NCBI GenBank assembly: GCA_964534375.1
Contig: CAZHPN010000174.1
Location: 1-12,542, forward strand
Reading direction: 5' to 3'
Source: an uncultured bacterium
GTDB taxonomy: Bacteria; Lernaellota; Lernaellaia; Lernaellales; Lernaellaceae
Length of the DNA: 12,542 bases
The position numbers and the translations under genes were made by a program. This document shows positions 4,093 to 12,542 of this stretch, piece after piece. The notes beneath the pieces are model-generated. The model was not told the origin of the DNA, did no database searches, and saw only the letters and a program-made list of their open reading frames with translations. The stretch's first letter is position 1. Every line of letters begins with the position of its first letter.

Positions 4093-6033
4093 ATGCGCGC
4101 GTTTGTCGTCGCGGGGTTGCTGCTGCTCGCGCTGACGGCGACGGCCCCGGCGACCGAATACAACCTGGCCAACGCCGGCACGGCCACGCTGCGGGCCGAC
4201 GGCCCCGCGAGCGGCGCCGACCTCGGCTGGAGCGTCGCCGTCGGCGACCTCGATGGCGACGGCAAACCTGACCTGGTCATCGGCGCGCCGAGCCTGATCG
4301 TCAGCGGCGCGCGGGCCGGCGCGGTGTACGTGCTGCTCGGCAAGAACGGCCTGACCGGCCGCGACATCGATCTCGCGACGCAGGCGGCCGACGTGACGAT
4401 CGTCGGCGACGCGGATTCCTACTTCGGCTGGAGCGTCGCGGTCGGCGCGGTGACCGGCGGCGCAACAGCGGATCTGATCGTCGGCGCCGCGCGCTCGACC
4501 GGGCCGGGCGGCGAAGCGGTGCTCGGCGCGGTCTACATTTTTCACGGGCGCGCGACCTGGCCGGCGCAACTGACCCCCGCCGACGCCGACGTGGTCATCT
4601 GGGGCGAATCGGCCGGCAGCGAATTCGGCGACGCCCTGGCGCTCGGCGATTTCAACGGCGACGGCAAGGTCGACTTGTTCGTCGGCGCGCCGGGTTTCGA
4701 GGCGGTCGGCGCGCCCTCCGCGGGCAAGGTGTATGGCTTTCTCGGCGGCGTGTTGCCCAGCGTCATCGACCTGCGCCAGCCGTCGGTGTCCGCCAACGTC
4801 GAGGTGACCGGCGAGGCCGGCGGCGACCGGCTCGGCCAAGGTTTGACACTCGGCGATTTCGACGGCGACGGCTATGCCGATCTCGCGATGGGCGCGCCGG
4901 GCGTTTCGTCGCCGCTGCCGGGCCACAAGGAAGGCTTTCCGGGCACGGTGTACGTCATTCGCGGCCGCAAGCTGACGCAGCCGCTGGCGATCGACCTTTC
5001 TTCGGCGGCGCCGGATGTGCGCATCACGTGGCCCGGCGAGTTGAACAACCTGGGCACGGCGCTGGCGGCCGGCGACCTCAACGGCGACGGCCTCGCCGAC
5101 CTGGCGATCGGCGCGGCGAACCTGCCCGATAAATCGACAGCCGGCGAGGTGTTCGTCGTGTTCGGGCAATACACGCTGCCGGCGACGGTCGATTTGTCGA
5201 CCGCCGACGTGACGATCGACGGCGGGCAGGCGGGCGAGCGGTTCGGCTACGCGTTGACGATGGGCGACGTGTCCGGCGCCTGCCTCGACGACTTGGTCAT
5301 CGGCGCGCCGAATTTCGATTCGCTGGGCGTCAGCCACGTCTACGTGATCGCGGGCGGGCGCAACCTGCCCGCGCAACTGCACATCGACCTGGCTGCTGGC
5401 GGCGAGCCGTACGACCTGATCGACGGCGCCGTCGTGGGCGACGAGGCCGGCTTTGCGTTGGCGCTGGCCGATCTGAACGGCGCCGGCGTCGAAGACTTCC
5501 TCGTCGGGGCGCCGGCGGAGAGCGTCGGCAATCCGACGCGCACCACCGCCGGTTCGGTGTTTGCGATCATCAACCAGGCGACGATTCAGCCGCCGACCGC
5601 GAACGCCGGACCGGACCGCACAACGGTCGTCAACGTGCCCGTCGCGCTCGACGGCAGCGGCAGCCACGATCCGGCCAGCGCGCCGCTGACGTACGCCTGG
5701 ACGCAGATCGCCGGCCCCGCCCAGGCCACGCTGCTGCAGGCCGGCACGGCGACGCCGCTCGCGATCGCCACCACGCCGGGCGCTTACAGCTTCCAGTTGA
5801 TCGTGGCCAATTGCGGCAAATCCAGCGCGCCCGCCGACGTCGCCGTGATGGTCAAGGCGTTTCCGGGCGGGACCGACGACGACACGACGGACGACGACGA
5901 GCAAGCCGACGACGACAACGCCGATGACGACAATGCGGATGACGACAACGCCGGACACCACCACAGCGGCGGGCCCTTCGGCTCGAGCGGCAAAGACACC
6001 GGGGTTTACGGCGGCGGCGGCTGCGCGGGGTGA
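4093..6033 (+). CDS. Secreted FG-GAP (integrin-alpha beta-propeller-like) repeat protein with PKD/K319-like domain, Asp-rich linker and C-terminal GGGGCAG
   Basis: ATG 2 nt after the ompA stop, followed by signal peptide MRAFVVAGLLLLALTATAPA. About 7 repeats of (F/L)G..(V/L)A.GD(L/F)(D/N)GDG..DL.IGAP. PTANAGPDRT...LDGSGSHDP...LTYAWTQIAGP marks the PKD-like domain. 646 aa. Confidence 0.92.
   Translation: MRAFVVAGLLLLALTATAPATEYNLANAGTATLRADGPASGADLGWSVAVGDLDGDGKPDLVIGAPSLIVSGARAGAVYVLLGKNGLTGRDIDLATQAADVTIVGDADSYFGWSVAVGAVTGGATADLIVGAARSTGPGGEAVLGAVYIFHGRATWPAQLTPADADVVIWGESAGSEFGDALALGDFNGDGKVDLFVGAPGFEAVGAPSAGKVYGFLGGVLPSVIDLRQPSVSANVEVTGEAGGDRLGQGLTLGDFDGDGYADLAMGAPGVSSPLPGHKEGFPGTVYVIRGRKLTQPLAIDLSSAAPDVRITWPGELNNLGTALAAGDLNGDGLADLAIGAANLPDKSTAGEVFVVFGQYTLPATVDLSTADVTIDGGQAGERFGYALTMGDVSGACLDDLVIGAPNFDSLGVSHVYVIAGGRNLPAQLHIDLAAGGEPYDLIDGAVVGDEAGFALALADLNGAGVEDFLVGAPAESVGNPTRTTAGSVFAIINQATIQPPTANAGPDRTTVVNVPVALDGSGSHDPASAPLTYAWTQIAGPAQATLLQAGTATPLAIATTPGAYSFQLIVANCGKSSAPADVAVMVKAFPGGTDDDTTDDDEQADDDNADDDNADDDNAGHHHSGGPFGSSGKDTGVYGGGGCAG
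5905..5949 (+). repeat. 15-bp coding tandem repeat x3 (ADDDN) in the acidic linker
   Basis: gccgacgacgacaac gccgatgacgacaat gcggatgacgacaac. Confidence 0.8.
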
Positions 6034-9718: not shown

Positions 9719-10501
9719 TCACGGCGGATTCTTGTTTTCGCCGCCGGCGGTCCAGATGCCGCCGGACTGGTGGTAGGTCAACGCCGGACTGCCGGTGAAG
9801 ACGAAGGCGGCGGGCTCGAACGCGAACGTGGTTTCCGGCCAGCCTTCCCACAGGCTGCGGTCCGTCGGTTCGGCGTACGGATTCCGGTTGCCGCCGAACA
9901 AATCGATCAATGTTTCCCGTTCGCCCTTCGCGCCGAATTGCAGCGGCGCCCAATCGGCGCGCAGGCCGCCGGACACGGTCGATTCGAATTTCGGTTCGGC
10001 GCCCACATAGCCGAGCGCGCCGAAACGCATGCCCCACGTTCGCCCGGGGTCGTCGGTCCAGTAAGCGTCGCCGACCCAGGCGAGCGCCGTGGCCCCGACG
10101 GCGTAGTCGGCCCATTTCCCTTGGCTGAGGCGCCACGAATAATCCACGCCCGCGAAGCCAGAGGTCCAGCCGAACCCGACGCGCGGCCGCACGACGACCG
10201 ACTCGTCGCGTTTCTGCTTGAAGCCGAACGCCGTGTTGACCGTGCAATTGTCGACGGCGACGGTCCAGTCGACGCCGTCCGCGACGCCCTTGCGAAAGTA
10301 CACGCCGAAATTCGCCACAACGCCGCGGAAGCCGAGCGGCCGCACCGTGCGGCCGACGTAGCCGAACGACGCGTACGCCCCGGCCTCGAATTCGTTGACG
10401 CCGGCGATGCCGACCGGGTTGACCGGCAGGTAGGTCGGATTGCAGGCCGCGAGGGCAAGAAAGGCCAGCGATACGACTACGTATTTCGTCGCGATCCGCA
10501 T
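9719..10501 (-). CDS. Hypothetical lipoprotein, beta-strand rich
   Basis: MRIATKYVVVSLAFLALAAC has lipobox LAAC. Gly/aromatic beta-strand-like segments follow. Alternative start at 10525. Confidence 0.75.
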   Translation of the reverse strand: MRIATKYVVVSLAFLALAACNPTYLPVNPVGIAGVNEFEAGAYASFGYVGRTVRPLGFRGVVANFGVYFRKGVADGVDWTVAVDNCTVNTAFGFKQKRDESVVVRPRVGFGWTSGFAGVDYSWRLSQGKWADYAVGATALAWVGDAYWTDDPGRTWGMRFGALGYVGAEPKFESTVSGGLRADWAPLQFGAKGERETLIDLFGGNRNPYAEPTDRSLWEGWPETTFAFEPAAFVFTGSPALTYHQSGGIWTAGGENKNPP

Positions 10502-10585
10502 CGGGTCCGCCGTTGTTTCGGGCATGATGGCACGAATCCGCGCGCCGCGTAAAGCGCGACGGCGCCACGCGCAGGGCTGGCCTCA

Positions 10586-10677
10586 CCGTCTCCCATTGGG
10601 AAAGGTCGGGGTACGGGCCTTTGTATCGCCCTCACCCGCCTCGCTACGCTCGGCGACCTCTCCCAGGGGGACAGGTG
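10586..10677 (-). repeat. Fourth copy of the REP/REPIN-like element, inverted
   Basis: Reverse complement reads CACCTGTCCCCCTGGGAGAGGTCGCCGAGCGTAGCGAGGCGGGTGAGGG...CCCCGACCTTTCCCAATGGGAGACGG. Confidence 0.9.
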
Positions 10678-10755
10678 TACGCAGCCTTCTTTCAGATTTT
10701 CACGTTCACGCAACGAAAAATTATCGAATTTGGACCCTCCGGCGCCTGCCAAACG

Positions 10756-11041
10756 GTCGCAAGTACGCGTCATTGTGGAACTCCGCTGCTTGGCGCCGTG
10801 CTTGCAGTCCTCATCGCGGATCTTCGCTCTTTCATATGCGTGTCGGGGGCCTTCGCATATACCGCTCGTCTGCTGAGAAGCAGTCGCGAAGGCCCCCGTA
10901 GTTCCCACGACCCATCGCCCTGAGAAGGGTTTGCAAATCCCTGCGAGGGCTCGGATCGAGAGTCCTCCGGAATCCTCCATCTTAGGTGACCCTGTCCGCA
11001 CAATGATCTACGACTTGCGGCGGAACCGAAAAGGTTTCGCC
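10756..11041 (+). ncRNA. Candidate structured non-coding RNA, family unassigned
   Basis: Long-range closing helix, perfect 13-bp internal stem and several GNRA-capped hairpins on the + strand, in a region with no credible CDS. Confidence 0.5.
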
Positions 11042-11150
11042 GTCCCGCCTTGTCTTTTTCCTGGATCGACCGCAGGCTGCAATAGTCATTGTTCTTGACA
11101 TTTGATTGGCGCTAGAATGCCGCGCCTGGACGATCGGGGGGAGACGTCAC

Positions 11151-11876
11151 GTGGACGGTTATCTCGATTTGCACAGCCATCTGTTGCCGGGTTTCGACGA
11201 TGGCGCGAAGGGCGCCGACGAAACGCTGGCCATCCTCGCGGCGGCGCAGGCGGCCGGGTTCGCCGGCGTGATGGCGACGCCGCACTGGATGTCCGGCGTT
11301 TACGAGCACGATCGCGCGATGGTCGCCGCGGCAATCGCCGCGCTGGCCGCTGAACTGCGCGATAAACTCCCCGAGATTACGTTGTACCCGGGGTCGGAAT
11401 ATTATTTCGAAGAGGGTTTCTACGGCCGGCTCGAAGCCGGCACAATCACGCCGCTCGCCGCCGGCAAGCACGTGCTGGTCGAGCTGCCGTTGCTGCGCCT
11501 GCCGCCCCAGGCCAAGGAATTCGCCTTTCGCATCCGCATCAAAGGGCTGACTCCGATCCTCGCGCACCCCGAGCGGTGCGCCGATTTGGGGCGCGATCCG
11601 AAGACGGCGGAGGCGCTCGTGGCCGCGGGCTATCGGCTGCAAATCAATCTCTGCAGCCTATCCGGCTTGTACGGCCGGCACGCGGCCAAGGCAGCGGAGT
11701 GGATCGTCAAACACGGCCTGGCGGATTTCGCCGGTTCCGACGCGCATTCGCCGGAGCAGGCGGCCGAGGCTTTCGGCGAAGGGATGCAACTGTTGCGCAA
11801 ATATGCCGGCGCGGAGGGTTTGCAGCGGATCTTGATTGACAATCCGCGGGCCGTGCTCGGCGTGGAGGGCGGATGA
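11151..11876 (+). CDS. CpsB/CapC (YwqE-like) PHP-family tyrosine-protein phosphatase
   Basis: GTG start after a GGGGAG RBS. DLHSHLLPGFDDGA, ATPH, PGSE, VLVELP, PILAHPER and GSDAH. Confidence 0.92.
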   Translation: MDGYLDLHSHLLPGFDDGAKGADETLAILAAAQAAGFAGVMATPHWMSGVYEHDRAMVAAAIAALAAELRDKLPEITLYPGSEYYFEEGFYGRLEAGTITPLAAGKHVLVELPLLRLPPQAKEFAFRIRIKGLTPILAHPERCADLGRDPKTAEALVAAGYRLQINLCSLSGLYGRHAAKAAEWIVKHGLADFAGSDAHSPEQAAEAFGEGMQLLRKYAGAEGLQRILIDNPRAVLGVEGG

Positions 11877-12542
11877 CCAAGCCGATTCCCGATCTGGATT
11901 TCGGTCCGTATGAAGTCGATCCCGAGAGCGTGCGCCTGCTGCCGCAGATGTTCTGCCTGACGCACGATGTGCTGATCCTCGGCAAGGTCGACGCGAACGC
12001 AGCGACGCCCGTCGTCGTCGGGCTCGCCGATCTCAACGACATGGACACGCTGGATTCGGTCAGCCGCGTGCTGCGCGGGCGGCGGGTGCTGCCGGTGCGC
12101 GTTTCGTCCGACAAGATCCAGCGGGCGCTGGCCGCGGCGTACGGCCTCGACAAAGTGGCGGTTCCCAATCTCGACAGCAAAGATCCGCCGCAGGTGCTGG
12201 ATCGCGAAACCATCCTGGGCGAAGGCGATCAGGTCGAGCGCGCGACGCCGAAGTCGCATATTCACTCCGCCGGCCTGGATCGCGACGACGACGCGCCGAT
12301 CAAGCACCTGGTCAACGAAATGCTCGTCGACGCCTTGCGGCGCGGCGCGACGGACATCCACATCGAAAACTTTCGCTACCAGGCGGTCACGCGGCTGAAG
12401 ATCGACGGCATGCTGCAACGCATCCGTTCGCCGATCAACAAGGCGAACGCCGACGAAGTCGTCAATCGCATCAAGATCCTTTGCCGTCTGGACATCAGCG
12501 AACGGCGCGCGCCGCAGGACGGCCGCCTGACGCTGCCGGTCG
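11873..12542 (+). CDS. GspE/PilB-family secretion or pilus assembly ATPase, 3' partial
   Basis: ATGA overlap with the upstream stop. Hand translation MTKPIPDLDFGPYEVDPESVRLLP...DDAPIKHLVNEMLVDALRRGATDIHIE...RLKIDGML...NRIKILCRLDISERRAPQDGR, open to the window end. Confidence 0.93.
   Translation, partial: MTKPIPDLDFGPYEVDPESVRLLPQMFCLTHDVLILGKVDANAATPVVVGLADLNDMDTLDSVSRVLRGRRVLPVRVSSDKIQRALAAAYGLDKVAVPNLDSKDPPQVLDRETILGEGDQVERATPKSHIHSAGLDRDDDAPIKHLVNEMLVDALRRGATDIHIENFRYQAVTRLKIDGMLQRIRSPINKANADEVVNRIKILCRLDISERRAPQDGRLTLPV

Follow-up and report, generated by a model that had tools for sequence, protein, structure and literature searches.

Genes and features of the locus

The window, i.e., the whole 12,542-nt stretch of DNA that was analyzed, comes from an uncultured peat bacterium of the phylum Candidatus Lernaellota, with which PMC9324843 equates FEN-1099 and which is small, comprising 17 species genomes. 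The predicted RNA gene sits in the gap between two protein-coding genes (Table 1). Third-position GC places the coding signal on the minus strand until approximately 10525, in the frame of the open reading frame (ORF) at 9719-10525, and on the plus strand from approximately 11150; by the same measure, codon periodicity is absent across 10530-11100. Long spurious ORFs lie over the RNA element, two of which were searched against Pfam with no match, and two small ORFs within the RNA (ATG at 10837 and ATG at 11001) were dismissed on the grounds that, by eye, they are absent as conserved frames in the homologues.

The gene to the left encodes a lipoprotein-like protein for which no match was found in Pfam or NCBIfam. 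It is present in all eight genomes of the family that carries the RNA and in none of the 13 other genomes searched, and in six genomes it is divergent to cpsB, the first gene to the right. In relatives, a GT4 glycosyltransferase gene comes third, after cpsB and the gspE-type gene. The resulting operon order, CpsB tyrosine phosphatase, GspE/PilB-type ATPase (MshEN), and GT4 glycosyltransferase (11151-12541 in the window, 4104-7603 in L205), combines a secretion-type ATPase with polysaccharide genes, which is an unusual pairing.

Two further features of the window were recorded. An FG-GAP/PKD repeat protein is encoded at 4102-6033 (plus strand), and a longer frame there weakly matches a myxosortase-dependent protein family at its C terminus. 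Between the lipoprotein gene and the RNA, an 18-nt motif occurs in two copies, TCTCCCATTGGGAAAGGT and TCTCCCAGGGGGACAGGT, 70 nt apart (10587-10680); two contigs of the RNA library described below match 10615-10677 at 90-95% and then continue into unrelated sequence. The motif resembles a repeat dispersed between the genes of the host or of related genomes.

TABLE 1 Features of the RNA locus and its surroundings (window positions)
Feature	Position	Strand	Remarks
Lipoprotein-like protein, 268 aa	9719-10525	-	Signal peptide and LAAC lipobox (by eye)
Upstream motif TTTCAGATTTTCA-N-GAAAAAT	10690-10722	+	Conserved; candidate enhancer (UAS)
Sigma-54 -24/-12 promoter TTGGCGC-CGTGC-TTGCA	10790-10806	+	GG at -24, TGC at -12
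Predicted transcript, ~240 nt	10817-11059	+	Both ends predicted, the start from the promoter
5' motif GCUCUUU (G.UCUUU)	10826-10832	+	~+10 to +16 of the RNA; 10/10 homologues
Helix F	10844-10898	+	13-bp outer stem, asymmetric internal loop with AUACCGC, inner CUGCU/AGCAG capped by GAGA
Helix G, GCCCU-GAGA-AGGGU	10917-10930	+	5 pairs, 2 compensatory; 96% of cells paired
Helix I, GAGGGC...GUCCUC	10945-10967	+	9 pairs, 7 compensatory; 91% of cells paired
CCUCC stretch	10974-10978	+	9/10 alignment rows, outside the covarying helices (by eye)
AGGUGACCC stretch	10984-10992	+	5' arm of weak hairpin J in 8/10 homologues; GGUGA in 10/10 rows (by eye)
Helix K, GCGGCGGAACC-GAAAA-GGUUUCGCCGU	11017-11043	+	11 pairs, 3 compensatory; 100% of cells paired
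Sigma-70-like promoter of cpsB, TTGTTC-N18-TAGAAT	11089-11118 (TTGTTC 11089-11094, TAGAAT 11113-11118)	+	Outside the RNA
cpsB, CpsB/PHP tyrosine phosphatase	GTG start 11151	+	Right-hand neighbor of the RNA
GspE/PilB-type ATPase with MshEN domain	after cpsB	+	Right-hand neighbor

A sequence-only reading had delimited 10756-11041 as a structured RNA candidate and proposed a search for homologues, and these were indeed found by blastn and nhmmer, the element being present in all six syntenic gaps. Local blastn aligned the G004 gap at 66.6% over 299 nt and the G001 gap at 61.1% over 306 nt, at very nearly the coordinates of that reading, while a BLAST-type DNA search of 61 relatives returned only G001 (E 0.0032) and missed G004. 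A three-sequence profile detected the element in the three genomes of genus g3 (E 1e-12 to 1e-14). The RNA is single copy in the host genome (one match; one significant match with nhmmer), not present in several copies per genome as a dispersed repeat or mobile-element end would be.

Two covariance models were then available for wider searches, R1 (141 positions, 3' domain) and R2 (87 positions, helix F). R1 found exactly one copy in each of the eight genomes of one Ca. Lernaellota family, G003 and G006 with their differently placed lipoprotein gene included, and none in nine genomes of three sister families. R2 was strong for its four seeds only, with weak matches in two g3 genomes (E 0.18-0.38), and recovered none of G007, G003, G006, and L052, in which helix F rests on separate folds. 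A pattern scan of metagenomes gave 71 stretches, six of them confirmed by R1 (E <=1e-18), of which four duplicate the sequence of G000, G005, or G007, whereas L098 and L052 are new. Applied to 185,579 species genomes, the same pattern yielded 89 stretches; R1 confirmed five of the 80 examined (E <=1e-18), with the same scores as the family genomes, and the other 75, from many phyla, had no R1 match and, like the unconfirmed metagenome stretches, were set aside as chance matches of a GC-rich pattern. A weak match in L066 (R1 E 0.0011) was likewise treated as chance. The comparison set comprises ten distinct sequences from approximately seven lineages.

Promoter, transcript, and helices

Immediately before the predicted RNA, TTGGCRY-N5-TTGC is kept in all ten distinct homologues, with GG at -24, (T)GC at -12, and the spacing of TGGCAC-N5-TTGC, the form reported for ChIP-defined sigma-54 sites in Salmonella, including those of the sRNA genes glmY and glmZ (PMC3844500). 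Sigma-54 itself (rpoN) is encoded in the host (PF04552 match of 211.6 bits in a 478-aa frame), whose genome also has 23 matches to the AAA+ domain of sigma-54 activators (PF00158), 19 of them above 200 bits. Across the host genome, TGGCRY-N5-TTGC occurs 182 times compared to 81-121 times for spacings of 3, 4, 6, or 7, and there are 26 copies of the strict motif TTGGCRY-N5-TTGCW, most of them before ORFs in non-coding stretches (no codon bias). By eye, the ORFs following the strict motif include type IV pilin-like, GvpA-like, flagellar-switch-like, and poly-Asp lipoprotein frames (e.g., C133, C29, C32, and C38), and the -24 element in the host mostly reads TTGGCGC, with G, not A, at the fifth base. 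Given the position of the promoter, the RNA is expected to start at approximately 10817 (+/-2 nt).

Farther upstream, the CAGATTT with which the conserved upstream motif begins lies 96-99 nt before TTGGC in 10/10 homologues, the intervening DNA being variable. The motif is retained with either divergent neighbor, the lipoprotein gene or a PBP1A-type gene, and hence belongs to the RNA gene. According to PMC3844500, upstream activator sites (UAS) are usually 70-150 bp away from the sigma-54 promoters that they precede; position and fixed phasing fit, and the motif is likely an enhancer to which a sigma-54 activator would bind. No activator gene adjoins the RNA in any locus examined.

The predicted RNA, from its expected start to just past hairpin K, measures 229-246 nt in the ten homologues. 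Its 3' end should lie between 11043 and approximately 11088, i.e., past hairpin K, close to the T-run (11055-11059), and short of the promoter of cpsB. The T-run begins 12 nt 3' of the helix K stem; a scan of 10400-11300 found no canonical intrinsic terminator, and K has no U-tract directly after it.

The helices are kept through compensatory substitutions in both alignments that were scored, with far lower values for slid controls. In a MAFFT alignment of four sequences, 8 of the 18 pairs of helix F are compensatory, a count that none of 500 shuffles reached, and a long hairpin occupies the place of helix F in each of ten separate folds, with differing stem sequences. In the 3' domain, 96.0% of 249 cells are paired and 12 of 25 pairs have changed on both sides across ten sequences, figures to be read with the knowledge that the sequences were aligned to the R1 structure, which favors pairing, and that only approximately seven independent lineages stand behind the covariation counts; here 0 of 500 shuffles reached the count of 12 or any other measure except one, and slid partners gave 32-55% paired. 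Helix I has a UCG/CGA tip and, in the host genome, a 2-nt bulge. The 3' domain is near-identical across genera in which the flanking proteins are only 50-63% identical.

As to the strand, folding of the single sequence is of no help, since both strands of 10750-11060 fold about equally well and far better than shuffles, the plus strand at -128.8 kcal/mol (z -4.73) and the minus strand at -132.1 kcal/mol (z -4.96), each with 0/100 shuffles as good. The comparison of folding with shuffles that the sequence-only reading had suggested thus came out better than chance, but on both strands. The plus strand, which that reading had favored, is nonetheless settled by the alignment and the promoter: the 249 paired cells of the ten sequences divide into 216 Watson-Crick, 23 G-U, 4 A-C, and 6 other, and the excess of G-U over A-C agrees with the direction of the promoter. 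Read on the plus strand, 96% of cells are paired, compared to 88% on the minus strand.

Several elements of the sequence-only reading recur among these helices. All strings that it listed were found where it had placed them. Its perfect 13-bp stem (10844-10856/10886-10898) was recovered by an inverted-repeat search and is the conserved outer stem of helix F, its inner hairpin CUGCU-GAGA-AGCAG forms part of the same helix, GCCCU-GAGA-AGGGU is the covarying helix G, and its 3' hairpin is helix K. The supposed CCT-GCGA-GGG tetraloop hairpin, in contrast, does not form, its GAG opening helix I instead (GAGGGC 10945-10950 with GUCCUC 10962-10967). The GNRA loops stressed in that reading do cap F or G, each in about four to five of the ten sequences by eye, and are not universal. 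Both of its long-range closing helices, as well as its TCCGC/GCGGA pairing, had to be abandoned: the sigma-54 promoter begins only downstream of their 5' arms (10756-10786) and, in the alignments inspected by eye, complementarity between the partners is missing from the homologues. The 8-bp closing pair TCATTGTG/CACAATGA (10770-10777/10999-11006) exists as a repeat and is not a conserved helix, the closing-helix arm ACTTGCGGC overlaps hairpin K, and the minimum free energy (MFE) fold of the plus strand makes no use of the closing helices. These pairings are chance features of the host genome. The expected start of the RNA therefore falls inside 10756-11041, the first ~60 nt of that interval being promoter DNA and not RNA. 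A related pairing of our own, in which RNAalifold joined TTGGC to GGUGA or to the 3' tail, was dropped once TTGGC had been recognized as promoter; the case shows that an invariant promoter can be taken for part of an RNA fold.

Outside the covarying helices, the GCUCUUU motif lies 21-26 nt past the C of TTGC in 10/10 homologues. MFE folds predict that it pairs with the purine run after helix F in the seven homologues outside G000, G004, and G001; in these three, the host's own group, no pairing partner was seen. The stretches at 10974-10992 are candidate contact sites, C-rich and anti-Shine-Dalgarno-like. Hairpin J, GGUGA-N5/6-UCAYC, is possible in eight of the ten homologues, the host genome and G004 being those in which it is not. 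The segment following AGGUGA (within 10993-11023) has two possible partners, GGUGA and the 5' strand of K; it reads UCCGCAC in the host and UCACCACCC in most homologues, and the host also has GGCGG for GGUGG. By eye, this region may represent an alternative-structure switch, of only 5 bp and with one event.

In one wetland metatranscriptome run, a 168-nt contig matches 10844-11011 but for a single mismatch and does not extend beyond the predicted RNA. The run consists of contigs at a depth of approximately 3, which show neither ends nor strand and in which DNA carry-over is possible, so that the contig agrees with expression of the RNA and supports it weakly. The flanking genes have no contig in this run, and the contigs carry no evidence on their expression.

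No Rfam family accounts for the element. Searched against Rfam 15, the window gave no match at gathering thresholds and, at E <=10, three weak minus-strand matches (<=17.8 bits, E 1.7-6.5) to two snoRNA families of eukaryotes and a family of microRNA precursors; seven homologous loci gave a single match (E 0.88), unrelated and away from the RNA. The 6S, RNase P, tmRNA, and SRP RNAs were each found elsewhere in the host genome above cut-off. These results agree with the earlier failure to recognize any tmRNA, SRP, RNase P, or common riboswitch signature by inspection and, together with the covarying homologues, support the suggestion of a novel or poorly known plus-strand ncRNA. No regulatory RNA appears among the titles listed in the literature on Lernaellota/FEN-1099.

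Gene status and mode of action

Overall, the locus combines a conserved upstream site, a canonical -24/-12 promoter, an RNA of uniform length, four covarying helices, and one copy per family genome. The sequence-only reading had left undecided whether the RNA stands alone or forms the leader of the cpsB operon, and three of the ten loci are informative in this respect. In G003, G006, and L052, an opposite-strand (convergent) gene follows the RNA within ~70-170 nt and a PBP1A-type gene replaces the lipoprotein gene as the upstream neighbor, with RNA, promoter, and upstream site all fully retained; cpsB lies 4.1 kb (G003) and 2.3 kb (G006) from the RNA, with opposite-strand genes in between. The RNA is thus not always directly upstream of, and co-transcribed with, a given gene, as a cis leader or riboswitch would be.

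cpsB, in addition, has its own promoter. A (G)GTTGTC-N17/18-TACAAT-like motif precedes it, by eye, in eight of the nine genomes looked at (the host and L201-L206, L098, and L016; the match in G004 is poor), and it is also present in three genomes in which the RNA is 2-4 kb away. A simple promoter scan missed this promoter because its -35 element matches at only 3/6 positions. The motif may show the housekeeping promoter consensus of the lineage, with a -35 of the TTGTC type. A second sigma-54 promoter before cpsB, TTGGCGC-TAGAA-TGCC at 11106-11121, was considered and rejected, its spacing being one base short.

The convergent gene after the RNA and the separate promoter of cpsB together indicate a separate gene for the RNA, and of the two options left by the sequence-only reading it is the stand-alone one that is favored. 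We consider it highly probable that 10690-11059 constitutes an entire stand-alone gene, driven by sigma-54, whose product is a structured ncRNA of ~240 nt on the plus strand. The fuller statement, that this stand-alone, sigma-54-driven gene is switched by an activator and that its product is a trans-acting regulatory sRNA, includes an inferred mechanism and seems to us, on balance, probable. One of the approximately 20 sigma-54 activators would bind the upstream site on a signal and switch the RNA on, and the RNA would then act in trans as a regulatory sRNA. Its GCUCUUU, CCUCC, and C-rich post-AGGUGA stretch could pair with the purine-rich ribosome-binding sites of target mRNAs, whose translation would be repressed, possibly with the help of Hfq in the pairing.

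Base-pairing to ribosome-binding sites is our first choice for the mode of action, and a tentative one. It is preferred because the unpaired stretches with the highest conservation are rich in pyrimidines and complement purine-rich ribosome-binding sites and because Hfq is encoded in the host genome. Among the features of classical Hfq-dependent sRNAs, Hfq and pyrimidine-rich motifs outside the covarying helices are present; a canonical terminator is not, the T-run lying 12 nt past K, and in having no adjacent U-tract hairpin K is unlike its counterparts in those sRNAs. GCUCUUU, for its part, may not be a free seed, given its predicted internal pairing in seven homologues. An RNAduplex scan against the start regions of the lipoprotein gene and cpsB gave only meaningless full-length duplexes.

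The main rival to base-pairing, to which we assign a rather low probability, is a structured RNA that, like GlmY, CrcZ, or 6S, binds a protein or a ligand instead of pairing with mRNA. The uniform length of 229-246 nt, the strongly conserved architecture, and the near-identity of the 3' domain across genera with 50-63% identical flanking proteins all speak for this, as do, by eye, the conserved asymmetric internal loop of helix F and the GNRA-type loops of several homologues, which would also fit an RNA held by tertiary contacts. GNRA loops are not universal, however, and neither repeated binding motifs, e.g., GGA or CA-rich loops (by eye), nor a linked partner gene were seen in the loci examined. 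We regard as decidedly unlikely that the sigma-54-controlled RNA, instead of being an ordinary pairing sRNA, has a defined three-dimensional fold, binds a protein or the ribosome, and acts as a decoy, either for Shine-Dalgarno sequences or for a factor recognizing them. The decoy is suggested by the resemblance of the CCUCC and AUCACCACCC stretches to the 3' end of 16S rRNA, and the fold by the uniform length, the asymmetric internal loop of helix F, the GNRA-type loops, and the near-invariant 3' domain. If true, the RNA would represent a functional class not described before, one that modulates translation globally when induced by a signal.

Very unlikely, in our estimation, is a cis-acting leader or attenuator, in which the sigma-54 promoter would drive the cpsB-gspE-glycosyltransferase operon and hairpin K would gate read-through. 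RNA and cpsB are on the same strand in 9/9 genomes with cpsB on the contig, cpsB is only ~100-200 nt downstream in G000, G004, G001, and L098, and the post-AGGUGA segment has, by eye, an alternative pairing with GGUGA or the 5' strand of K. Yet that pairing comprises only 5 bp against the 11-14 bp of hairpin K, K has no U-tract, the element is fully kept where a convergent gene follows it, and downstream of K cpsB has a promoter motif of its own, clear in eight of nine genomes. As for readings with no functional RNA, namely a region that regulates only as DNA (binding sites for the divergent genes), a decayed coding sequence, or a mobile-element end, the divergent intergenic setting, the about equal folding of the two strands as single sequences, and the long spurious ORFs over the element would be compatible with them, but the compensatory changes and G-U versus A-C asymmetry, the single copy in the genome, the absence of codon periodicity and of Pfam matches (decayed coding sequence and mobile-element end having been named from the outset as what might overturn the RNA), the retention of the element when its neighbors change, and the RNA-library contig inside it make these readings extremely improbable.

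Comparison with known sigma-54-controlled RNAs

The Lernaellota RNA is a new family, but a regulator of a kind already known in other bacteria. GlmY and GlmZ are RNAs of ~200 nt with several hairpins that work through RapZ and glmS, CrcZ sequesters Hfq/Crc via repeated A-rich motifs, and the Qrr RNAs are Hfq-dependent pairing sRNAs of ~100 nt. The RNA described here has no match to the GlmY/Z Rfam models, neither the CrcZ nor the Qrr hallmark was found in it, and its lineage is unrelated to those of CrcZ and Qrr.

Its likeness to these RNAs lies in the control of transcription. In Enterobacteriaceae, the sigma-54 promoters of glmY and glmZ are described as of the TGGCAC-N5-TGC type and as requiring the activator GlrR (PMC3844500), and the Lernaellota RNA is likewise an sRNA gene with a sigma-54 promoter of this type. 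The same source reports that in Salmonella these promoters overlap sigma-70 promoters (PMC3844500), whereas none was seen here in a promoter scan. CrcZ/CrcY in Pseudomonas (CbrB) and Qrr in Vibrio (LuxO) are presented as switched on by a two-component sigma-54 activator (PMC8871633, PMC6296734, PMC4878744, PMC11407668).

A further likeness is to Pxr of Myxococcus xanthus and relatives, which PMC5568312 describes as a lineage-restricted, stand-alone intergenic sRNA with multiple stem-loops, whose transcription appears to start at a sigma-54 promoter of its own that has an enhancer binding site. The Lernaellota RNA shares with it the stand-alone intergenic gene, the several stem-loops, the sigma-54 promoter of its own, and the restriction to one lineage. 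Pxr, as described there, is 108 nt long and folds into three stem-loops, and its gene closely follows nla19, the presumed activator gene (PMC5568312); the present RNA is set apart from it, by description, in its ~240 nt, its four helices plus a weak fifth, and the absence of an activator gene nearby. By model, the RNA matches no Rfam family, and by description its size and architecture differ from those of Pxr, GlmY/GlmZ, CrcZ, and Qrr.

For the Lernaellota, which have no cultured member, the locus gives a complete and testable gene model consisting of candidate enhancer site, sigma-54 promoter, and structured RNA, and the homologues provide a clean seed alignment with which Rfam could be extended by a family. 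The sRNAs known to be controlled by sigma-54 are few, and the present one extends them to a lineage distant from those of the proteobacterial and myxobacterial cases.
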